A stretch of DNA of 64,000 nt from Patescibacteria group bacterium (GTDB taxonomy: Bacteria > Patescibacteriota > Microgenomatia > UBA1400 > PJMF01), in assembly GCA_049322655.1 (NCBI GenBank), contig JBMORP010000006.1, positions 512,410 through 576,409 of the forward strand, in the 5' to 3' direction. This document shows positions 1 through 43,266 of this stretch, piece by piece. The notes under the pieces are model-generated. The model ran no database searches. It was not told the DNA's origin and was given only the letters and a program-made list of their open reading frames with translations. Position 1 is the stretch's first letter; every line of letters starts with the position of its first letter. A program made the translations under genes and the position numbers.

Positions 1-2165
1 ACTCCCGCCTATTCTAGACAATTCCATATACAAAATCAGTGCCAAGTTGTAGTAAAGCTTCACGGGGTCTTTTTGTCCTGCTGCTAGTAGGCCGCATCTT
101 CACGGCCATTTCAATTTCGCCGAGTAATAGTTTAAGACAGTATGAGGCTTGTTATACCTTTCGTGCGGGTCGCCAATTAAGCGACAAGGAACTTCGCTAC
201 CTTAGAACAGTTATAGTTACTGCTGCCGTTCACCGGGGCTTCGATTGAAAGCCCTTGATCCGAAAACCAAGAACCCTCGCAATTAACCTTCCGGCACCGG
301 GCAGGCTTCAGCCCGTATACTTCCTCTTACGAGTTTGCACGGACCTGTGTTTTTGTTAAACAGTCAACCTCATGACATTCACTGCGCCTTGCCTTGCGGC
401 AAGGAGGGCATCTTTCGAGATTACGCCCAGCTGTTTTGCCGAATTCCTTAAACTACCTTCTCTCGCTCCCCTTGGTCTACTCGACCTATCCACCTGTGTC
501 GGTTATCGGTACGATTTTATATAAATCTCCCTGCGAAACTTTTCCAGGACAAAGAAATCAGATATATCAAGAGTCACAAGGACTCAAGACCCATCACACC
601 TCAGATAAACGCCTCGACGGATTTTCCTATCAAGACTGCTTCAGTGATTAGATTTGAAATTCACTTCCAAATATATCTTATCCTTCGTCGTCATTCCCCA
701 AGTCAAACGATCTATACAAAGGACTGGAATATTAACCAGTAATCCATCGGCTACCCTTGCCCTTAAGACAAGGCTGACCTTAGGGTCGCCTAACCCGCAC
801 ACGACGAACGTGGGTGCGGAAACCTTGGATATTCGGGGTTGTGGATTCTCACCACAATTTCGCTACTCATGCCGGCATTCTCACTTCTGATCACTCCAGC
901 ACCTCCTCACGGGGCACCTTCACAGTACACAGAACGCTCCCTTACCACTTCCTACATATTATTGTAAAAAATCCTAAGCTTCGGTTGTATATTTTAGCCT
1001 CGTTAAATTTTCGACGCATGTACCCTACGGCTAGTGAGCTGTTACGCTTTCTTTAAAGGATGGCTGCTTCTGAGCCGACCTCCTAGGTGTCTTAGGATAC
1101 AAACTTCCTTTCCCACTCAATATACATTAGAGACCTTAGCTGTAGGTCTGGATTGTTACCCTTTAGCTCTTGGAACTTAGCTCCCAAGTGCTGAGTGCCA
1201 CGAAACACACATTAGTATTCGGAGTTTGACTAGATGCTGGAAGTTTCCTCCCAAACACCCGATCAGTGCTCTACCCCTAATGCGCTTAACGTGACCCCAT
1301 ACCTAAATATGTTTCAGGGAGAACCAGCTATCTCCAGGTTCGATTGGCATATTACCCCCAACCACAACTCATCCGAGCATCTTGCAGCATACAACGGTGC
1401 GGGCTTCCTTTTTCCTTTCGGAAAAACTCACCCTGGTCATGGTTAGCTCACCTGGTTTCGGGTCATTCAACAACTACCATAAATCGCCCTCTTAAGGCTC
1501 GCTTTCACTGAGGCTTCGACGCGGAACGTCTTAACCAAAGCAGTTGTCAAATACTCGCCGGCTCATTCTTCAATAGGCACGACATCACACAACAAGTGTG
1601 CTTTGTCTGTTTGTTAGCAAATAGTTTCAGGGACTATTTCACGGGGTCTTCAACCCTTCTTTTCACCTTTCCCTCACGGTACTCGTTCACTATCGATCTT
1701 ATCTAGTATTTAGCCTTGGAGTGTGGTCACCCCAGCTTCAGAAGGGAGTTTGCCGTCTCCCAACCTACTCAGGAATCTTCTATGGTCTGTTTTTATTTCA
1801 AATACACGACTTTCACGTTCTTTGGTTACGTACTCCACCGTATTCTTTTATAAAACCAGAATCCAATGTTGAAGTCCTACAACCCCCATATAAATATGGG
1901 TTTGGGCTTTTCCCTTTTCGCTCGTCGCTTACTCAGGGAATCTCTTACGTTTTCTTTTCCTCAGGGTACTTAGATATTTCAGTTCCCCTGGTTACCCCCC
2001 TTCATCAAAGATGAAGAGCCATTATGATCTCTCATAACGAGGTTACCCTATTCGGACACCGCCGGATCACAGCTTTTTGCCAGCTCCCCGACGACTATCG
2101 CGGGCTTGGCGTCCTTCTTCGGCTAGATAAGTCTAGGCATCCACTACTTGCTTTAATTCACATAA
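1..2165 (-). rRNA. rrl: 23S ribosomal RNA, partial (5' about 2/3; 5' end near 2165, window truncates the 3' part)
   Basis: Reverse complement contains conserved 23S blocks. At about 2090-2050: GGGGAACTGAAATATCTAAGTACCC (the domain I 5' conserved block). At about 200-150: GGTAGCGAAGTTCCTTGTCGCTTAATTGGCGACCCGCACGAAAGG (the helix 69/71 region). At about 2155-2120: GTGGATGCCTAGAC...GAAGGACGCC, a 5'-terminal match. ORFs called inside are spurious. Confidence 0.93.
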
Positions 2166-2186
2166 TTAGCGAAATTTGCATTTTTT

Positions 2187-2210: not shown

Positions 2211-2391
2211 TAATAAATTCTCGACGAATTTACTATTAGATGACATATCTCTTCACTTTTTAAAGAACAAACTAATCAAGAAGCTTGCGCTCCTTGTTGT
2301 TCGCCCCGAGTAATTAGAATATCTCCTAAAACCCGTGAACGAATAACAAACAGCTCAAATTTTTAAACTTATTGATTATGTTAAGTTGCGG

Positions 2392-2465
2392 TGGACCCTA
2401 AGGGTCTCGAACCCTTGACCTCTACATTGCAAATGTAGCGCTCTAGCCAACTGAGCTAAGGGCCC
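2392..2465 (-). tRNA. tRNA-Ala (anticodon TGC)
   Basis: The reverse complement GGGCCCTTAGCTCAGTTGGCTAGAGCGCTACATTTGCAATGTAGAGGTCAAGGGTTCGAGACCCTTAGGGTCCA folds as a cloverleaf. The 7-nt anticodon loop TTTGCAA gives anticodon TGC. The G3:U70 Ala identity pair is present. The T-loop is TTCGAGA. CCA is not encoded. Confidence 0.9.
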
Positions 2466-30912: not shown

Positions 30913-31895
30913 AAAAAGATAGTATCCTCCCACAAAATACTCCAACAAAAACACTCAAAGAAATTGCTAAAAATCCATTAGAAGATATTGAATATATAAA
31001 AAATATTGAAAAACAATTGAAAAAAAGACGTGGCTATTCATTTAAAATGCCAAAACCAAAGACTCCAGTTATTTTAATGTTTTCTGGGGGGTTGGATAGC
31101 ACTACCATTTGCGATATTTTACTTAGAAAATACCAGTTACAAGTTTATCCACTCCATCTTAGAAGGGGTCAAATTAGGATGCCAATCGAAGAAAAAGCGG
31201 TAGCTGATCTTTCAAAGCATTTTACCAAAGAGTTTCCTAAACTTTACCACCAGCCACAAATAGTTAATGCCTTTATTCCACCATTAGAGTTTAGGTTTGA
31301 TGTAACCGCTCATGCTGAAGTAAGAGCTAATAAAAAAAACAAGCAATGGCTGGGTATACCTATGTATACATCGATGGCAGCTGAATATGCTGTTAACTAC
31401 GCTATTTTTCTAGAAAAAACTAAAGGTATAAAAATTAGAGACATATTTTTTGGAATTATGAGCAAAGATGGTTTGGTGATGAAATATGAAACTCTCACTT
31501 TTTTGAGATCAATGACAAATCATATTTGTCAATTAATGGGTGACTATTCTTGGCAAGTATCATCGCTTCCAGTAGAAAAAGAGCTTGGTTATTACTTTGA
31601 TAAGGAACCATTAATTAAATGGTGCGCCAAATACAATGTCCCAATTCATAAATCATTCAGTTGCTTAGATCCTCACTACTATCACTGTGGCAGTTGTTAC
31701 TACTGTCAAAGAAGAAAAAATATCACTAAAGAAATTGGTGAAAAAGATAATACTTTTTACATAGATGAACAGCCATTTCAAAGGCTAGTTAGATTATTAG
31801 ACAAAATACTTTATGTTAAAGAATATACTAAATTTTTCATCAAAATTAATAAAACATTTTTGAAATATTTCATTAAATACTTCAATGGAAGATAA
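30909..31895 (+). CDS. QueC-like PP-loop ATP pyrophosphatase (328 aa); paralog of 17833-18771
   Basis: KRRGYSFKMPKPKTPVILMFSGGLDST aligns with KKRGYVFKEPKPGTPVVLLLSGGIDST of the paralog. C-terminal Cys cluster SFSCLDPHYYHCGSCYYCQRR. Confidence 0.75.
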   Translation: MKKDSILPQNTPTKTLKEIAKNPLEDIEYIKNIEKQLKKRRGYSFKMPKPKTPVILMFSGGLDSTTICDILLRKYQLQVYPLHLRRGQIRMPIEEKAVADLSKHFTKEFPKLYHQPQIVNAFIPPLEFRFDVTAHAEVRANKKNKQWLGIPMYTSMAAEYAVNYAIFLEKTKGIKIRDIFFGIMSKDGLVMKYETLTFLRSMTNHICQLMGDYSWQVSSLPVEKELGYYFDKEPLIKWCAKYNVPIHKSFSCLDPHYYHCGSCYYCQRRKNITKEIGEKDNTFYIDEQPFQRLVRLLDKILYVKEYTKFFIKINKTFLKYFIKYFNGR

Positions 31896-32714: not shown

Positions 32715-33971
32715 ATGTTTGGAATAAAAAGTTACTTTTCAAAAAAAATTAACTTAAGATTCAAAAAAATTGTTAGTGAAACTCAACTTTCAAAAAAAAG
32801 TTTATCATTTATTGATAAAAAAATAACTGAAATTGCTATTTTTAGAAAACTAACAAATGAAAACTGGGATAAACAAATTCAATCACCAGTATCTTCCTAT
32901 ACTAACCCTGAATCTAGAAAAATAGTCAAAGTTATTAGTAAATTTAATCCAAATAACCTAGGAAACTGGTCAGAAGAAAAAAGTTTTCATCTGTCTGGAT
33001 TATTGGAAAAAAAAATAATTGATTATTTAGTTAAACTTCTAAAAGCAAAGAACAAAGAAATGGGTGGATATTTAACTAGTGGCGGAACTGAGGCAAATAT
33101 TTTTGCTATGTGGTTGGGTCGAAATTCACTTCAAAAATCAATTAAAACCAATCAAATCATAGTTTTAAAAACTAGTCTCACCCATTATTCAATTGAAAAA
33201 GCTACTGATTTAGTTGGATTGAATTATACAGATATCTCAATTGATTCCAAATTTTGGGGAATGAGCCTAAAAAATTTAGAAGAGACAATCAAAAAAGAAT
33301 ATAAAAAAGGCAAAAAAGGATTCTTAATTCCATTAACACTAGGTTACACCATTACTGGATCGGATGATCCAATCAAAGAAATCAATAATCTAATCAATAA
33401 ATTAAAAAATCAATATAAAGAAATAAAGTTTTTTTGTTGGATTGATGCGGCATTTTCTGGAATAGTAAAACCATTTTTAGAAGAAAACTTCACTCCATTT
33501 TCCTATAACAATATTCAGGCTTTCCTCACTGACTTTCATAAAGTTATGGCTGTTCCTTATCAATCAGGAATAATCATCTATAGAAAAAATCTAATAAAAA
33601 ATATAGAAAATGAAGTTACTTATATTGGTAGAAAAGATACAACTTTGCTTGGTTCAAGATCAGGAAGTTCAGCTATTATCACTTGGTTTACCCTTATCTC
33701 CTTAGGACAAGATAAAATCATAAAAATAATTGAACAAGCTATAAAAGAAAAAAATATTTTTATTAAACAAATTCAAAAAAAAATACCAAATATAAAAATA
33801 ATTAATCAAAAAAGTAATATCCAAATTGGTTTAGTTGCAAATAGCAAAAATCAAAAAAATATTTTAAATAAAATGAACTTAGAAGAAACAAAACAGAAAA
33901 TTTTGCTTAATGGGAAAAATAAAAAAATCTCTATTTATAAAATATATTTTTTGCCATTTTTTAAAAACTAA
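32715..33971 (+). CDS. group II pyridoxal-phosphate-dependent decarboxylase (MfnA/GadB/HDC-like fold)
   Basis: LTSGGTEANIFAM (TSGGTEAN motif) and DFHKVMAVPYQSG (D-x-HK PLP-lysine motif). Confidence 0.7.
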   Translation: MFGIKSYFSKKINLRFKKIVSETQLSKKSLSFIDKKITEIAIFRKLTNENWDKQIQSPVSSYTNPESRKIVKVISKFNPNNLGNWSEEKSFHLSGLLEKKIIDYLVKLLKAKNKEMGGYLTSGGTEANIFAMWLGRNSLQKSIKTNQIIVLKTSLTHYSIEKATDLVGLNYTDISIDSKFWGMSLKNLEETIKKEYKKGKKGFLIPLTLGYTITGSDDPIKEINNLINKLKNQYKEIKFFCWIDAAFSGIVKPFLEENFTPFSYNNIQAFLTDFHKVMAVPYQSGIIIYRKNLIKNIENEVTYIGRKDTTLLGSRSGSSAIITWFTLISLGQDKIIKIIEQAIKEKNIFIKQIQKKIPNIKIINQKSNIQIGLVANSKNQKNILNKMNLEETKQKILLNGKNKKISIYKIYFLPFFKN

Positions 33972-34825
33972 ATTTCTTTGAAATCAATTATTTTAGCTTG
34001 ATCTCCTCCTATAGAAAAAGAGTTTAAATATACTTTAATGTCACTACCAATTCCAAGTTTAGTACCATCCAATAAATAATAATTATCAGCATTTTTATAA
34101 GCTTTTAATCTTAAATTAATTGTTAAATCTCTATAATCTGGATCAATAACCTTAATATTTTCTCCCCTAATATCAGAAAACTCATAATTAGAATGAATTT
34201 CACTGGTAAAATCCATTACTTCAGCTAAAATCCTGCCTTGTTCATCACTCATGATCATCCCCTTTTCTAATTTTGCAGCCACATCTAAATCAACCCACTT
34301 TACTTTAACCAAAACAGCCAAATCAACTTGGTCTGAAATCAATTTATCACCAATAAAAGAAATTACTCCATCGACATTGTTTTTCCCAAAAGTCAAATTT
34401 AAACTTCTGCCTACTTCAATAGGCTCAGAATTAAAAAGATACAGGCCTCTTTTGTTATCAAAATATGAACGTACATCCAAAACCACAAAAATAGTACTTC
34501 TACCCTCTCCATCTTCAAATGTTTGCTTATCAACAACTTCAGCAATTGTTTCGCCAAAAGTGTTTTTAGCCACATCACCAATAGCTAAATCATTAATTAA
34601 CCAATAACTAGTTTGTTTTTCAGTTTGCCACCACCATTCTTCATTAGAGATAAAAAGGCCAACTCGCACCCATTCTTCTTTTTTGATTAATTTTGAAATA
34701 ATAAGACTTGAAAATATAGCAAAAACAATCAAAATAATTAAAAAATCTAACCTTTTTAATTTTTTTGAAAAAGAAACAACACTAGTGAAAAATTTTTTAC
34801 TAAACATATCAAAACAATCCTTCAT
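33968..34825 (-). CDS. N-terminal TM-anchored secreted protein with an EWWW motif (DUF4330-like); paralog of 15743-16597
   Basis: See the entry for 15743-16597. Confidence 0.55.
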   Translation of the reverse strand: MKDCFDMFSKKFFTSVVSFSKKLKRLDFLIILIVFAIFSSLIISKLIKKEEWVRVGLFISNEEWWWQTEKQTSYWLINDLAIGDVAKNTFGETIAEVVDKQTFEDGEGRSTIFVVLDVRSYFDNKRGLYLFNSEPIEVGRSLNLTFGKNNVDGVISFIGDKLISDQVDLAVLVKVKWVDLDVAAKLEKGMIMSDEQGRILAEVMDFTSEIHSNYEFSDIRGENIKVIDPDYRDLTINLRLKAYKNADNYYLLDGTKLGIGSDIKVYLNSFSIGGDQAKIIDFKEI

Positions 34826-36260
34826 CGCAGATTATATCGGAAAAGGGATAAGTTTCACCTACAATTTATTTCCTTACTTTTTTATAACTCTAACTTTTCT
34901 GTTAAGTTTACTATTTGTCAGCTCAAATTTAACTCTATTAATAACAAGTATTATTTTTTCTTTTGTTCTCTACCAAAAAACCAAGAATTTAGAACTAACC
35001 ATTTTTTTAGGACTAATAACTACACTACCATTTGCTAAAGGTAAAACTTTTGAACTCATTTTGTTAGAAAACAATCAGGTTTCAACAAATTCATTATTTG
35101 ATATAGACTATTCTTTCCCAATCTACCTAAGTGATATTTTTTTGTTCGCGCTAATTTGGGTTTTAATTCGTAATAAAAATATAGTAAATAAAATAAAAAA
35201 CTTTAATATTTCAACAAGCCAAACCTGGTTTGTAGTTTTTATATTGATAACCATAGTATCAGGGTTTTTTTCTAAATTTCCGATTGTTTCTTTACTATCA
35301 TCAGCACAAATACTCAGATTACTTTTATTAATGGTTATTCCTTTAATTATAAATTCAAAAATAAAAATAAAAACAATAATAGAAACTACTGTAGCCTCGG
35401 TTTTATTTCAGACTCTGTTAATCTTTCTACAAAAAATAAACAATGGAACTCTAGGAATATACATAGAATCATTTATGCTTAAAGAAGAATTTGGCATCAG
35501 ATCAAATGAAAACATTGATATTCTTAGATTAACTGGCTCATTTTTTGAACCAAGTATTTTGGGTACTTTTCTTTTGATAAACTTCTCTTTGCTATTAAAT
35601 AGCCTCAAAAAGTTAAAAAATAATAAAATTAAAAAATTAGTTTTATTAGCATTATTAGGTTGTTTCATAGGAATTATTCTTACTGCTAGTAGAGGAATTT
35701 ATTTACTTTTCTTTGCTTATATCATTTATGAAATAATATTGGTAGTCAAAAATAGGAATTTAAAATTAAAAACAATAAACAAGAACTTATTATTGGCAAT
35801 AATAATCATAGTTGCTGTTTTTTTACCATATTTTTCCAATAGAATCTTTGATTTTTCAAAAATATTTTCTAAACTAGGAAGTGGTACTTACAGATTACAG
35901 TTAGCTGAAGAGTCTTTTTTATTAGCTAAAAATAATCTCTTAGGAGTTGGAATTAATCTTTCTCCTTATAATTTTGCAATACAAAAATTTTCAAAAGAAA
36001 TAATTTTTGATCCAGCTCATCCTCATAATATATTTTTTCAAATTTTAGCTGAAACAGGCTTTATTGGTTTAACAATATTTAGCTTTTTTATATTTTATAC
36101 AATCAAAGAAATTCCACAATTAAACAAAAATTTGTTTTTTTACCCAATAATTTTGTTTTTAATAGCCGCACAGTTTTACCCAATTTTTATTAATCAATCA
36201 GAAATTACTAGTTATTTGTTTTTATTCATAGGACTAAGTAAAAAATATAGCAAATCATGA
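34683..36260 (+). CDS. O-antigen ligase/Wzy-like polytopic membrane protein (525 aa); start uncertain (the ORF overlaps the divergent upstream gene by 143 nt)
   Basis: Multi-TM; DPAHPHNIFFQILAETGFIGLTIFSFFIF matches the Wzy_C-type signature. Confidence 0.6.
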   Translation: MINFEIIRLENIAKTIKIIKKSNLFNFFEKETTLVKNFLLNISKQSFIADYIGKGISFTYNLFPYFFITLTFLLSLLFVSSNLTLLITSIIFSFVLYQKTKNLELTIFLGLITTLPFAKGKTFELILLENNQVSTNSLFDIDYSFPIYLSDIFLFALIWVLIRNKNIVNKIKNFNISTSQTWFVVFILITIVSGFFSKFPIVSLLSSAQILRLLLLMVIPLIINSKIKIKTIIETTVASVLFQTLLIFLQKINNGTLGIYIESFMLKEEFGIRSNENIDILRLTGSFFEPSILGTFLLINFSLLLNSLKKLKNNKIKKLVLLALLGCFIGIILTASRGIYLLFFAYIIYEIILVVKNRNLKLKTINKNLLLAIIIIVAVFLPYFSNRIFDFSKIFSKLGSGTYRLQLAEESFLLAKNNLLGVGINLSPYNFAIQKFSKEIIFDPAHPHNIFFQILAETGFIGLTIFSFFIFYTIKEIPQLNKNLFFYPIILFLIAAQFYPIFINQSEITSYLFLFIGLSKKYSKS

Positions 36261-38195: not shown

Positions 38196-38966
38196 ATGAT
38201 AAATACTATTTCTAACCCTAACACCAGTAGTAACACTTCTTTTCCGATGGGAAATATCCCTTCTGATCCAGTAGCTAATATTCCTAGTGCTGAAGAAAAA
38301 GTTGAAAAAAAATTTTCTAAAGACCAAAAAAAGAAAATGCCTTCCAAATATATTCTGGCAGGAATTTTGCTATTAATCTTAACCATTGGTGGTGGAATTA
38401 GCATGTACTTAATAAATAGAAGCCAAGATTTAAGGCAACAAGCCGATGTTGGCGATTATACGAGGCCTCCTGCTGGTGGCGACTGTTCTGGTTCATCAGC
38501 AGCTCAATGTCAAGGTAAGAACCCTGGAGATAGTTGTGGAGGAGATGGTACTTGTCGAGACTTACCTAATCAAATAGGTAATGATGGAAAAGTAAAGTGT
38601 ACTTGTGACACTGGCTCTACCAATCCTACAACAGTACCAACCACAGCACCAACAATTGAGCCGACCACTGCCCCAACTGGCGAACCAACAACCAGCCCAA
38701 CAGAGGAGCCAACGGGGGAACCAACAGCAGAACCGACAAATTCTGATGATAGTGGCAACGATGATGATAGCGATAGTAGTTCAGAAAGTTACTCAGAGAG
38801 TAATAGTTCCGCCACAGTTAACATCAGTACCAATACTACTACAACTACTAGCCAACCAAACCTGCCTTCACAACTACCTCAATCTGGTCCTGAAGACTGG
38901 TTGAAATACTTACAAATTGGACTAGGAGCACTCGGAGCTGGAGCTCTTCTGCTACTTTTCCTCTAG
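38196..38966 (+). CDS. Cys-rich, Pro/Thr- and Ser-rich cell-surface protein, paralog 1 (N-terminal signal-anchor plus C-terminal LPQSGPEDW-hydrophobic tail)
   Basis: N-terminal TM followed by SQDLRQQADVGDY. A module with 9 Cys. A (TAPT/EPT)n linker. A D/S-rich region. C-terminus LPSQLPQSGPEDWLKYLQIGLGALGAGALLLLFL. Confidence 0.7.
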   Translation: MINTISNPNTSSNTSFPMGNIPSDPVANIPSAEEKVEKKFSKDQKKKMPSKYILAGILLLILTIGGGISMYLINRSQDLRQQADVGDYTRPPAGGDCSGSSAAQCQGKNPGDSCGGDGTCRDLPNQIGNDGKVKCTCDTGSTNPTTVPTTAPTIEPTTAPTGEPTTSPTEEPTGEPTAEPTNSDDSGNDDDSDSSSESYSESNSSATVNISTNTTTTTSQPNLPSQLPQSGPEDWLKYLQIGLGALGAGALLLLFL

Positions 38967-38983
38967 AAAATTAAAAATAAATT

Positions 38984-39017
38984 AAAGGCCTGTTCTTGAA
39001 AACAGGCCTTTTTTTAT
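38984..39017 (+). terminator. rho-independent terminator
   Basis: aaaggcctgtt-cttgaa-aacaggcc followed by ttttttt, 18 nt after the stop codon. Confidence 0.8.
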
Positions 39018-39085
39018 TGAACATATATCCTAATTGACTGACCCCTCAAAAAAGTTATATCCTTATTAAGGAATGATTTAAGTTT

Positions 39086-40069
39086 ATGGAATCAGGAAAT
39101 CCAAATAACACCGAATTAACTCAACAAACACATACTTCTGCTGATAACAAAGAAGTTAAGTTTGCTCAAAGTCCAAAGTCAAACAAAAAAATTGTTTTGG
39201 GCTTGATTTCTTTGTTGTTTTTGGTGATTGGTGGTGGGATTGGGCTTTACTTAACAGAAGTCAGTCAGGATTTACGACAACAAGCCGATACTGGTGACTA
39301 CAGCAATTATGAATGTAACTTGAATGATCCAAATGCTTGTGGAGGAAATCCAGAACAATGTCACTGTACTGGCGGTGACGCCTGTACTGGTACAGAATGT
39401 GATGATTCTATTCAAACCTCCTGTGAACTACAAGGTAGAGCTTACTGTACAAATTGGCAGGGTCAAGGAACAACTTGTTGTGTCCCGGGATATGTTTGCT
39501 GTCCTAACTCAGATGGTTGTTGCGCTGGTGGAGGACCAACTAACCCTCCCCCTCCGACTGAACCTCCAACAACTATTACCCCAACTAGAACTCCCACTCC
39601 AAGTCCTACCGTAACAATTACTCCCACACCGACCCTTACTGCAACTCCAACACCTACCACAACTATCACTCCAACTCCGACTACTCCAGTTGGACCTCAG
39701 TGTTTGGATATTAAAATGTACAGCATGACCAATGGACAAAGTGATATTGTTAACCTGACAAATAATGATGATGCAAATTTAGTACCTGGAGAAAGTATTG
39801 TTAGATTAGTTTGTAGTAGTACAGATGGTCCTACTTTACCAGCAGGCTACTTCTATGCCTTTAGAATTTATGAGCCATGTGGCAGTGGCAACCACTACGA
39901 ACCTCTAGAATTTGTTAATAATGAAGGAGAAAATGGTATCAACTATACCATTGGTTTCTCTGGAGACTATATGGCTCAATGTGCAATTTGTGAGGTTGAT
40001 GCTGCAGGAGACACGGTTTGTGGTTGGGAAAGTTTAACACCAACAGCCTGTGACAGTGATTTAGACTAA
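39086..40069 (+). CDS. Cys-rich Pro/Thr-rich secreted protein, paralog 2 (same N-terminal anchor motif, lacks the C-terminal sorting-like tail)
   Basis: TM then SQDLRQQADTGDY. About 30 Cys in repeated CxxC/CC arrangements. A (TPTP)n linker. C-terminal domain of about 130 aa ending CDSDLD. Confidence 0.7.
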   Translation: MESGNPNNTELTQQTHTSADNKEVKFAQSPKSNKKIVLGLISLLFLVIGGGIGLYLTEVSQDLRQQADTGDYSNYECNLNDPNACGGNPEQCHCTGGDACTGTECDDSIQTSCELQGRAYCTNWQGQGTTCCVPGYVCCPNSDGCCAGGGPTNPPPPTEPPTTITPTRTPTPSPTVTITPTPTLTATPTPTTTITPTPTTPVGPQCLDIKMYSMTNGQSDIVNLTNNDDANLVPGESIVRLVCSSTDGPTLPAGYFYAFRIYEPCGSGNHYEPLEFVNNEGENGINYTIGFSGDYMAQCAICEVDAAGDTVCGWESLTPTACDSDLD

Positions 40070-40070
40070 A

Positions 40071-40829
40071 ATGATAGACACTAACAATAACACACCAGTT
40101 CAAAATGAGTTGCCACAGAACAAAGTGGTTGCTGGTATTCCTAGTTTTACAAAAAAAGAAGAAAACCAACCAAAAAGAAGTATTAAAAATACTGTTTTAC
40201 TTGTTCTTGGTTTATTAGCTTTTTTTGTTACTGGTGTGGCTGGAGTAATGATTGCTCAAAAACAATTCTTAGATGATTCTATTACCGCTCCCAATGCTCC
40301 ATCATCTCAACCAGCTGCCTACATTAGCCAAGAAAGTTGTCATATTTCATTTACTGTACCAGGCCAAGAGGTTACCCCTACTCCAACCCCAGAACCAGCT
40401 GAATGTGGTTCTACTCCCTGTGAAACTGATAATGATTGTTCAACAGACCTCATCTGTGTAACAGCCGAAGATGGAGAAAACTACTGCTCAATGCCAGAAT
40501 ATGAAGAAGCCTGTATTAATAACCCCGGAATTAATACTTGTTGTAACGAACCAACCAATACCCCCACTCCGACTCCAACGCCAACCCAAGGAAGCTCCTC
40601 CAGTAGCTCCAGCTCAAGTTCTAGTAGTTCTTCTGTCACCGTAAAGGTTGAAAACAACACCAAAATCTCTGGCAATACTAACACCAGCAAAACTACCACT
40701 ACTACCAAAGGCCAACAACCAGAATATCCTGAAACTTTGCCTCAATCAGGACCTGAAGACTGGTTGAAATACCTCCAAATTGGTTTGGGAGCACTTGGAG
40801 TAGGAGCTTTATTAATCCTCTTCCTCTAA
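40071..40829 (+). CDS. Cys-rich, Pro/Thr- and poly-Ser surface protein, paralog 3 (different N-terminal anchor, conserved C-terminal tail)
   Basis: ECGSTPCETDNDCSTDLICVTAEDGENYCSMPEYEEACINNPGINTCC module, shared with paralog 4. An S16 tract. C-terminus LPQSGPEDWLKYLQIGLGALGVGALLILFL. Confidence 0.7.
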   Translation: MIDTNNNTPVQNELPQNKVVAGIPSFTKKEENQPKRSIKNTVLLVLGLLAFFVTGVAGVMIAQKQFLDDSITAPNAPSSQPAAYISQESCHISFTVPGQEVTPTPTPEPAECGSTPCETDNDCSTDLICVTAEDGENYCSMPEYEEACINNPGINTCCNEPTNTPTPTPTPTQGSSSSSSSSSSSSSSVTVKVENNTKISGNTNTSKTTTTTKGQQPEYPETLPQSGPEDWLKYLQIGLGALGVGALLILFL

Positions 40830-41012
40830 TGATTGACTAACCTGGCTAAAAAGAGCTATCCTTAATAGGATATAAACATCGATGTCTGATTTTGTAGTTG
40901 AAAAAAACCAAGCAAATACCCAAGCAAACCCTTCAGAAAAAAAGAGGGTTTTTCTAGTTTCAAAAATAAAAAATCAAACAATCTAAATAATAAAAAGAAA
41001 ACAAAATTAATT

Positions 41013-41984
41013 TTGGGTTTTCTGTCATTGTTGCTATTGATTCTTGGTGGGACTATTGGTCTTTACATGACGAAGATAAGCCAAGATTTAAGGCAGCAAG
41101 CAGATGTTGGTGACTATACTGGCACTGGTGACGTTTGTACCGCCAGTGGTGGTCAATGGGTAGGAAACTTATGTTGGATGGGAGGAACAGCTACTTGTGC
41201 TGGGCCAGGACAAGGCGGTGGAGATCCATGTGCTGCTAATGGTGGAATTTGTTCTGGAACTAATGTAATTAGATGCCAATGTGGTAACGCTTGGGTCGCT
41301 GGTAAAGCTGGTTCAAGTTGTAGTGATTTATGTGGTGAGGCAAACCTTAACTGTGATGATGATTGTACCCCTACCAATCCACCAAATAATCCTACTAACC
41401 CACCACCAAATCCAACCAATACTCCAACCCCAAGACCAACTAGAACACCCACCCCTACGCCCAGTGCTCCACCTAGTCCAACGCCAACTTTACCTCCCAA
41501 TGTAACCCCAACCATTACTCCAACCATAGTGCCAACTATTATTCCTGGTTGTGGCTTTGGTCCATGTACGGATAATAGTGGTTGTGATGATGACCTAATC
41601 TGTGTAACGGCTGATAATGGCAATAGTTACTGTTCACTCCCAGAATATGAAAATGCTTGTATTTCTGAACCAGGCGTTGAAGCTTGTTGTACAGCTCCGA
41701 CTGTCACTCCAACCACCCCACCTAACGAACCAACCTCAACTCCCACTGCCACTCCAACCCAAACAAGTAGCAGTAGTAGTTCTTCATCTAGCTCTAGCAG
41801 TAGCACTGCATTGGTCAACATTACTAATAACACCACTACTTCAACAGCTACCAATAGATATGTCCAAACAACACCTACTTTGCCTCCAGAATTACCAAAA
41901 AGTGGCCCAGAAGATTGGTTGCAATACTTACAAATTGGTTTAGGCGCTCTTGGAGTTGGTGTACTATTGTTACTATTCTTATAA
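41013..41984 (+). CDS. Cys-rich, Pro/Thr- and poly-Ser surface protein, paralog 4. The ORF as called starts at a TTG; the probable true start is ATG 40882 in another frame (a -1 frameshift is needed at A_AAA_AAG, 40936-40946).
   Basis: TM then SQDLRQQADVGDY. Shares the Cys module with paralog 3. C-terminus LPPELPKSGPEDWLQYLQIGLGALGVGVLLLLFL. The upstream frame encodes MSDFVVEKNQANTQANPSEKK, which resembles the paralog N-termini. Confidence 0.65.
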   Translation: MGFLSLLLLILGGTIGLYMTKISQDLRQQADVGDYTGTGDVCTASGGQWVGNLCWMGGTATCAGPGQGGGDPCAANGGICSGTNVIRCQCGNAWVAGKAGSSCSDLCGEANLNCDDDCTPTNPPNNPTNPPPNPTNTPTPRPTRTPTPTPSAPPSPTPTLPPNVTPTITPTIVPTIIPGCGFGPCTDNSGCDDDLICVTADNGNSYCSLPEYENACISEPGVEACCTAPTVTPTTPPNEPTSTPTATPTQTSSSSSSSSSSSSSTALVNITNNTTTSTATNRYVQTTPTLPPELPKSGPEDWLQYLQIGLGALGVGVLLLLFL

Positions 41985-42123
41985 GAATAATAAAACAAAA
42001 TTTCATAACAAACCCCTTTTCCCCAAGGGAAAGTGTCTCAGGTTAACCTGACTACAAAAGAACTAATCAAACTACCTACCTGGTTCTTAGTTTTTTGTTT
42101 TATAATTACCTCCTAGAGAAAAA

Positions 42124-42196
42124 GCGTGCGTAGCTCAATTGGCAGAGCGCCAAGCTTATACCTTGGTGGTTCTAGGTTCAAGTCCTAGCGCACGCA
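42124..42196 (+). tRNA. tRNA-Ile (anticodon TAT)
   Basis: GCGTGCGTAGCTCAATTGGCAGAGCGCCAAGCTTATACCTTGGTGGTTCTAGGTTCAAGTCCTAGCGCACGCA folds as a cloverleaf. The anticodon stem is CCAAG/CTTGG with loop CTTATAC, giving anticodon TAT. T-loop TTCAAGT. Discriminator A. No CCA encoded. Confidence 0.75.
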
Positions 42197-42216
42197 CTAA
42201 AATAGTAAGAAAAGCT

Positions 42217-43266
42217 ATGAAAAAAAATCTTAAAAATATTATTCAAAAATTTAAAACAATTTGGCAAACCAAAAAATGGCTAGTGATCACTTCTCTGATT
42301 GTTTTGCTGGTAGCAGGCAATAAACTTTACCAAAATAAAAAAAACCAACCAAACTTAACTTTTGCTTATCCAACCAAAGAGACTATTACTAAAACCCTAG
42401 ATGTATCTGGAGTTATTGATGCTAAAGAAAAAGTTAGCTTACGCTTTGCTGCTGGGGGCAAAGTCGTTTATCTGGGAGCACAAGAGGGAGATGCTATTAA
42501 AAAATGGCAAACTATTGCCACGATTGATCAAAACACTGCTTTAAAAACTAAAGAAAAATACCTCAATAGTTACTCCAAAGAACGATTAGATTGGGATCAA
42601 AGACAAACTGATATTGGTGATGGCACTACTGTTGATGAAACTTTGCAAAGAACAATTGATAAAGAACAATATGACTTGAATAACTCTGTCTTGGATGTTG
42701 AATTAGCAGCAATTTCTATTACTAACAACACCATAACCGCTCCTTTTAGTGGGATTTTGGTTAAAAGTCCAACTCCTGTAACTGGAGTACAATTACTGGC
42801 CACAGATACTTTTGACTTAGTTAACCCAGAAACTTTAATTTTTAGAGCTTTGGTTGATGAAGCTGATATTGCCTTAGTTTCTAAAAACCAAACAGCTGAA
42901 ATTCAGCTCGATGCTTATCCAGATGATGAAAAACTCACCAGTTCAGTAAGTTACATTTCTTACCAAAGTGTGCCCTCTTCTAATGGAACTTCGTTTGTTG
43001 TTGAATTTCCTATTTCCTCAATTGATCTTAGTAAATATCGATTGGGCATGAACGGTGACGTAGAAATAAAACTAGAAACAAAGGAAAATGTCTTAACCAT
43101 TCCATTAATTGCTATTAAAGAAAGAGATGGCAAGATTTTTGTGGAAGTTAAAACGGGTACCGCCACTACAGAAGAAAAAGAAATTGAGATTGGATTAGAA
43201 ACAGATGAAAAAGTTGAAGTGCTTAGTGGTTTAACTGAAACAGATGAAATTGTTATTCCAGAATAA
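42217..43266 (+). CDS. efflux transporter periplasmic adaptor subunit (HlyD/MacA-like membrane fusion protein)
   Basis: N-terminal TM, then coiled-coil and beta-barrel regions. Immediately upstream of a MacB-type ATPase and permease. The ORF-track start at 42139 runs into the tRNA and is rejected. Confidence 0.7.
   Translation: MKKNLKNIIQKFKTIWQTKKWLVITSLIVLLVAGNKLYQNKKNQPNLTFAYPTKETITKTLDVSGVIDAKEKVSLRFAAGGKVVYLGAQEGDAIKKWQTIATIDQNTALKTKEKYLNSYSKERLDWDQRQTDIGDGTTVDETLQRTIDKEQYDLNNSVLDVELAAISITNNTITAPFSGILVKSPTPVTGVQLLATDTFDLVNPETLIFRALVDEADIALVSKNQTAEIQLDAYPDDEKLTSSVSYISYQSVPSSNGTSFVVEFPISSIDLSKYRLGMNGDVEIKLETKENVLTIPLIAIKERDGKIFVEVKTGTATTEEKEIEIGLETDEKVEVLSGLTETDEIVIPE

Follow-up and report, generated by a model that had tools for sequence, protein, structure and literature searches.

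The fourth member of a tandem cluster of four surface-protein paralogs (38196-41984, forward strand) is split between two reading frames at a run of seven adenines. This raises the question of whether the 64-kb stretch of DNA that was analysed (the window) carries a recoding site, a shortened gene, a sequence error or a gene broken by mutation. The 5' fragment of paralog 4 (40882..40986, forward strand) begins with ATG at 40882-40884, comprises codons of the cytoplasmic tail and then runs out of frame to TAA at 40984-40986. Its translation reads MSDFVVEKNQANTQANPSEKK, then RVFLVSKIKNQTI and then a stop, giving the 34-aa product MSDFVVEKNQANTQANPSEKKRVFLVSKIKNQTI, of which residues 1-21 are those of the intact ortholog P0001. 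The break lies at the A7 homopolymer (40937..40943, forward strand) within GAA AAA AAG, the site of a 1-nt deletion relative to the in-frame alleles L001, L002 and L008, which have A8. The slippery heptamer A_AAA_AAG (X_XXY_YYZ) occupies 40938-40944 of the forward strand in the register of the ATG 40882 frame. In the original prediction, the ATG frame and the A7 tract were described as they stand in the sequence, while the heptamer was placed at 40936-40946 and the 0-frame stop at 40978; both positions are corrected here.

The remainder of paralog 4 (40944..41984, forward strand) follows in the -1 frame and aligns collinearly with both P0001 (367 aa) and the L004 ortholog. Encoded here are the remaining tail residues, then the membrane segment, Cys-rich and Pro/Thr-rich extracellular parts and a C-terminal anchor signal. 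TGA at 40898-40900 precedes the membrane-segment frame, which stays open between 40901 and the stop at 41982-41984. The first canonical start codon that it offers is TTG 41013, the choice of the ORF finder; the upstream extension of this frame contains neither ATG nor GTG, which extends the earlier observation that it has no ATG. MSDFVVEKNQANTQANPSEKK is joined to EGFSSFKNKKSNNLNNKKKTKLILGFLSLL (...PSEKK-EGFSSFKNKKSNNLNNKKKTKLILGFLSLL...) if an eighth A is present or the ribosome shifts by -1 after AAG. The first 57 residues of this joined product are identical to P0001, a protein present in two public assemblies, and therefore the join is not a chance resemblance. Over the full length, identity was 97%. 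The claim that a -1 slip connects the two frames exactly thus holds, the joined 367-aa protein matching the intact P0001. A second A7 run (GAA AAA AAC; 40901..40907, forward strand) lies in the zone where the two frames overlap. All close relatives have it unchanged, and it is not the break site; a -1 shift there would also reach the open frame, but the relatives place the indel at 40937-40943. An alternative genetic code was rejected because code 11 yields long contiguous ORFs across the window.

The join also restores the layout of the family, as had been predicted, with a Lys-rich tail and a membrane segment as in the three upstream paralogs. According to their translations, paralogs 1-3 (38196-38966, 39086-40069 and 40071-40829, forward strand) are all intact. 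In the common layout, about 35-60 residues of N-terminal tail lead into a single membrane segment, and beyond it lie Cys-rich modules and Pro/Thr/Ser-rich linkers. In paralog 4, the N-terminal membrane segment LILGFLSLLLLILGGTIGLYM is encoded at 41007..41069 (forward strand) with TTG 41013 inside it, and the arrangement of tail and membrane segment is shared by paralogs 1-3. Directly after it follows the motif SQDLRQQADVGDY (SQDLRQQAD-GDY; 41079..41117, forward strand), which is conserved in paralogs 1, 2 and 4, absent from paralog 3 and present in P0002-P0008 except P0005. Translation and homologs further indicate a C-terminal LPXTG-like sorting signal, LPKSG PEDWLQYLQIGLGALGVGVLLLLFL, without a basic tail (41892..41981, forward strand). 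The signal LPxSGPEDWL.YLQIGLGALG..LLLLFL was found in three of the four paralogs. Its pentapeptide is LPKSG in paralog 4 and LPQSG in paralogs 1 and 3, and the canonical LPKTG occurs in P0002 and P0007. The hydrophobic segment after LPKSG in paralog 4 is IGLGALGVGVLLLLFL. A hydrophobic segment after the motif is shared with LPXTG sortase-anchored proteins, whereas their basic C-terminal tail is missing: the sequences terminate in ...LLLLFL, and neither Lys nor Arg follows the hydrophobic segment. Searches of Pfam and NCBIfam gave no family assignment and no LPXTG-anchor family at E <= 0.1. The signal is therefore called LPXTG-like and not a demonstrated sortase substrate. The distant homolog P0011 is named 'LPXTG cell wall anchor domain-containing protein' by NCBI, a name that comes from the source annotation only. 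Together, the tail, membrane segment, Cys-rich modules, Pro/Thr linker and LPxSG with hydrophobic C-terminus point to a location of paralog 4 at the cell surface. Homologs of paralog 4 were found in Patescibacteria/CPR assemblies. Paralog 2 (39086-40069) keeps the tail, membrane segment and SQDLRQQAD motif and does not have the C-terminal LPxSG anchor; its C-terminus is instead formed by another Cys-containing domain (…GWESLTPTACDSDLD), which P0004 has as well.

Related loci were used to determine the state of the homopolymer in other populations, a comparison proposed in the original prediction. L001 and L002 (Logan SRR13799153 and SRR13799152) represent a second population covered by two sequencing runs. 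Both encode P0001 with 367 aa and 97% protein identity, and both carry A8 in frame. A strain 99.9% identical to the window was represented by L008 and L006 (Logan SRR33423585). L006 does not span the site, and the state of this strain was read from L008, which has A8 and an open ATG frame to the contig end. Over 6.6 kb, SRR33423585 and the window differed by four substitutions, one 24-nt repeat indel and the A7/A8 difference. The syntenic MAG contig CAYSQA010000005.1 (L004), with 94.5% nucleotide identity, carries an intact ortholog that reads TCA ACA AAA AAG GAG in frame, so that the interrupted run ACAAAAAAGG stands in place of an uninterrupted A8. In the more distant L003 (ENA; protein P0003, 57% protein identity), the gene is intact and the corresponding codons are ATA GAT AGG GGA, with no A run. 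Only L005 and L007 (Logan SRR32167788), 100% identical to window positions 31401-53964, share the A7. The SRR32167788 contig begins at window position 31401 and is therefore a separate assembly. Thus, the orthologs of L001, L002, L003 and L004, and that of L008 to its contig end, have the ATG and the membrane segment in one frame, and the slippery site is not conserved. The original prediction had given this pattern as one that would refute a programmed frameshift. A8 is evidently the ancestral, in-frame state, and the remark that A8 would be in frame is borne out by L001, L002 and L008.

L004 was the sole relative of the locus found among GTDB genomes, and no relative was found in JGI metagenomes. 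The exact 24-nt flank CCAAGCAAACCCTTCAGAAAAAAA had no match in metagenome contigs or genome contigs. Exact-protein look-ups of the 323-, 305-, 252- and 397-aa products and of the joined 367-aa protein returned no match in an index that is incomplete, given that identical DNA is present in a Logan contig. The public title of CAYSQA010000005.1 is 'uncultured Pseudomonadales bacterium', although this contig is syntenic with and 94% identical to the low-GC window. The label is probably wrong; the protein relatives of the window are annotated as Patescibacteria.

The heptamer suggested that the full-length protein could be made from the A7 allele by a selected mechanism, either a dnaX-like -1 frameshift or programmed transcriptional slippage. 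A_AAA_AAG is the most shift-prone -1 heptamer in Escherichia coli (PMC5009743). Here it stands in the correct 0-frame register, and a -1 shift on it yields exactly the ancestral protein. The heptamer and its register are identical to those of E. coli dnaX, and in both cases the shift would give a meaningful product. The frameshift in dnaX needs an internal Shine-Dalgarno sequence on the 5' side and a stem-loop on the 3' side, and a shift of about 50% gives a shorter second product (PMC5009743). Both stimulators are present in dnaX and neither at paralog 4. The downstream hairpin or pseudoknot that the original prediction proposed to look for was not found: the 86 nt at 40945-41030 had a minimum free energy of -8.2 kcal/mol (z = -0.64), 48 of 200 shuffled sequences folded as well, and the fold contained only weak A-U and G-U pairing in place of a stem-loop or pseudoknot. 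The 20 nt upstream of the heptamer, CCAAGCAAACCCTTCAG, hold no Shine-Dalgarno-like element (GGAG, GAGG and AGGA absent). The motif is also common, with 79 in-frame A-rich heptamers (12 A_AAA_AAG and 67 A_AAA_AAA) in the 64 long ORFs of the window, and at 32.6% GC its occurrence is not above chance. Furthermore, the shift at paralog 4 would be needed for the only useful product, and the arrangement is absent from the orthologs, in which the site is A8 (L001, L002, L008), an interrupted run (L004) or no run (L003), all in frame. A programmed frameshift is unsupported because the relatives carry the gene intact in one frame.

Transcriptional slippage on the tract was considered in the same way. 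In Buchnera and Blochmannia, frameshifts in poly(A) tracts are rescued by transcriptional slippage on tracts of about 9-10 A or longer, and efficient slippage has been described for about nine A or T (PMC5009743). The locus resembles these endosymbiont cases in its AT-rich and poly(A)-rich genome, in a 1-nt indel in poly(A) inside a gene that still looks selected, and in a reduced genome, which is probable here from the assignment to Patescibacteria. The rescued tracts are longer, however, than the seven nucleotides of paralog 4. A7 is shorter than the 9-nt RNA:DNA hybrid, and efficient polymerase slippage is therefore not expected. Programmed recoding in either form is considered very improbable, and the dnaX-like frameshift of the original prediction is not upheld, given in-frame relatives, no hairpin, no internal Shine-Dalgarno sequence and a common motif.

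A second explanation is that the shortened protein is itself functional, with a start or re-initiation at TTG 41013 after a 34-codon upstream ORF and a product of 323 aa without cytoplasmic tail. In the membrane-segment frame, no canonical start codon precedes TTG 41013, and its distance of 27 nt from the upstream stop would permit re-initiation. Few starts in this genome have a Shine-Dalgarno motif (6 of 57), which leaves such a start conceivable and, for the same reason, makes a comparison of ribosome-binding sites between ATG 40882 and TTG 41013 uninformative. However, the product would begin within the membrane segment (MGFLSLLLL...) and would be missing the Lys-rich tail that every paralog and ortholog has at its N-terminus. 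According to the positive-inside rule, such a tail should set the membrane topology. None of the eight homologs compared in full (P0001-P0008) starts at the position of TTG 41013. A functional short form is thus regarded as improbable.

The third explanation is a sequencing or assembly artefact: the gene would be intact in the organism, with A8, and the consensus would have dropped one A. Indel errors classically fall in homopolymers, every close relative that has the run has A8, and the repaired gene appears fully functional, with dN/dS between 0.05 and 0.12. The window and the SRR32167788 contig may share reads, and their A7 states are possibly non-independent. On the other hand, A7 was reproduced in the SRR32167788 assembly with different contig boundaries, and the 67.9-kb Logan contig is identical to the window over 22.6 kb, which implies accurate reads. 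No other evidently broken gene was present among the 64 tightly packed ORFs of the window, and the 61 further A/T runs of 8 or more that lie inside genes are in frame. A window with 62 such runs and no further evident break speaks against homopolymer error being pervasive. Other homopolymer frameshifts were screened for by a check of ORF packing, as a first automated screen had mostly flagged ordinary gene boundaries. An artefact is considered unlikely, though less so than the short protein.

The age of the break was estimated from the sequence around it. After adding back one A, paralog 4 had a Nei-Gojobori dN/dS of 0.048 against L001 and 0.12 against L004. The gene is under strong purifying selection essentially up to the present, and the break is therefore recent. 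Apart from the run, the window, L008 and L002 do not differ across 232 nt (40822-41053), and L001 agrees with them from its contig start at 40858. With no other difference in this interval, the indel is therefore younger than any substitution there. From these alignments, the indel would be either very recent or else not real.

Other differences were detected within the cluster. In the comparison with L001 over 40858-42845, divergence is 0-2% in the flanks and, within paralog 4, in the 5' 200 nt and the 3' anchor region. It rises to about 13% in the extracellular part (41058-41858), nearly all of it synonymous (dN/dS 0.048). This pattern looks like recombinational replacement of the exposed part by a diverged allele. 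In the Pro/Thr linker of paralog 1, L008 has an extra 24-nt tandem unit ACCACTGCCCCAACTGGCGAACCA at 38663/38664, giving 264 instead of 256 aa, a second slippage-type difference within the same surface-protein cluster. In the tail of paralog 3, a neighbouring homopolymer (A7, 40151-40157) has a substitution of the stabilising type in L008, A-to-G at 40156 (AAA to AGA, Lys to Arg).

The explanation that we favour, and consider likely, is that paralog 4 is a normal single-frame gene of 367 aa in which a genuine replication-slippage deletion from A8 to A7 has produced an OFF allele. The ancestral A8 at codons 19-21 would have lost one A, turning GAA AAA AAA GAG into GAA AAA AAG AG, most likely through slipped-strand mispairing in replication; the A7 is thereby taken as biologically real and not as an artefact. 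Translation from ATG 40882 would end after 34 codons, presumably with loss of the protein, leaving an allele that is null or strongly hypomorphic. Some expression could conceivably leak through, whether from unprogrammed -1 slippage on A_AAA_AAG, from slippage of RNA polymerase or from a ribosome re-initiating at TTG 41013. Such low-level unprogrammed rescue of the A7 allele is possible but not indicated. This surface-protein paralog is probably dispensable and its loss harmless. Among the three readings offered by the original prediction, the slipped-strand frameshift allele with A8 as the in-frame state is retained, the programmed -1 frameshift is dropped and an assembly error keeps a smaller chance. 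A difference of A7 against A8 between strains of 99.9% identity agrees with either a slipped-strand mutation or a phase-variation-like allele, and an assembly error would be compatible with it as well. The break in paralog 4 adds a new case to a kind of event that is well known.

Whether the OFF allele could be reversible was assessed against the homopolymer background. A change of one base toggles the frame, A7 leading to a stop after 34 codons and A8 to the 367-aa protein, and tract length is polymorphic among near-identical strains, with A7 in the window and SRR32167788 and A8 in SRR33423585. A/T runs reach 7 or more at 251 places in the window. Inside 57 genes there are 62 that reach at least 8, about one per gene; 31 of the 57 genes have at least one, and 39% of the 62 runs lie in the first fifth of the gene, a 5' skew. 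AAA accounts for 82% of Lys codons and GAA for 73% of Glu codons in the window, and EKK is expected to be written as GAA AAA AAA because these codons dominate. Against this background, the run of paralog 4 is ordinary and bears no mark of a dedicated switch. No more than 12 A/T runs of at least 7 were comparable between the two near-identical strains, too few to show an unusual mutability of the paralog 4 run. A7/A8 is at the short end of the tracts known to phase-vary. As judged from the alleles, paralog 4 may undergo reversible phase variation or may simply carry a young loss-of-function mutation in a dispensable paralog. That the run is a working contingency switch, by which a CPR bacterium reversibly toggles individual tandem LPXTG-like surface proteins, is a tentative idea and on balance doubtful. 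If true, it would combine with recombinational replacement and repeat changes in the Pro/Thr linkers to give surface variation against hosts or phages; the Patescibacteria (CPR) bacterium may be an episymbiont. Within the literature searched, no paper tied phase variation to Patescibacteria surface proteins, and the single one with both terms concerned archaeal DNA methylation.

The closest parallel is inlA of Listeria monocytogenes, which encodes a surface protein with a sortase signal, LPXTG-like in the case of paralog 4, and has a poly(A) tract near the 5' end of its coding sequence. In inlA, A7 is in frame, A6 is frameshifted with a product ending after 8 residues, and A2GA4 is a stabilised version (Orsi, Bowen and Wiedmann 2010, PMC2831843). 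The in-frame allele is thus A7 there and A8 here, and the allele shorter by one base truncates the protein at 8 aa there and at 34 aa here. An interrupted in-frame version exists elsewhere in both, A2GA4 there and ACAAAAAAGG in L004 here, and in both systems the alleles segregate among closely related strains. The inlA study also described long A/T runs skewed to the 5' ends of genes, as in this window. Switching from A6 to A7 in inlA occurs at about 5.5e-7, roughly 1000-fold above the point-mutation rate (PMC2831843). This frequency was measured, whereas paralog 4 was compared among assemblies. The tract also differs in position, at nucleotide 6 in inlA and at codons 19-21 in paralog 4, and the host here is an uncultured bacterium of the Patescibacteria type. 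Further comparison was made with the contingency loci of Neisseria, Haemophilus, Campylobacter, Helicobacter and Bordetella and with the 7C run in glpK of Mycobacterium tuberculosis (PMC10334774). Paralog 4 shares with contingency loci a 5' coding homopolymer, membership in a surface-protein paralog family and a one-base difference that toggles the frame between near-clonal populations. Classical tracts, however, are usually longer or made of G/C and stand above the genome background, whereas A8 is ordinary in this window.

For annotation, the locus is best recorded as one gene with a homopolymer frameshift, either a pseudogene or a variant allele, and neither as a TTG-started 323-aa ORF nor as a recoding site. 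In AT-rich genomes, finding A_AAA_AAG where a frame breaks is no evidence of programmed frameshifting. The cell-surface biology and host interaction of the Candidate Phyla Radiation are poorly understood. Mixed A7/A8 populations, if true, would represent homopolymer-driven on/off variation of a surface protein in this group, adding an example and no new principle.

Several neighbouring features were noted in the window. A TTG-started ORF of 525 aa (34683-36260, forward strand) overlaps a minus-strand gene at 33968-34825. The Logan gene call on identical DNA comprises 309 aa only (Wzy_C, equivalent to window 35331-36260), so that no gene is called across some 500 nt (34826-35330). A 23S rRNA gene (1-2167, minus strand) is cut by the window start and preceded by tRNA-Ala(UGC) at 2390-2465 (minus strand). 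No 16S rRNA gene was found within the 64 kb, and the rRNA genes therefore appear to be unlinked. Directly after paralog 4 lies a tRNA-Ile with anticodon UAU (42124-42197, forward strand). In most bacteria, AUA is read by a lysidine-modified CAU anticodon and not by UAU. A TTG-started ORF of 375 aa at 42139 runs through this tRNA, and the corresponding gene in L004 starts at an ATG equivalent to window position 42217 (MKKN...).
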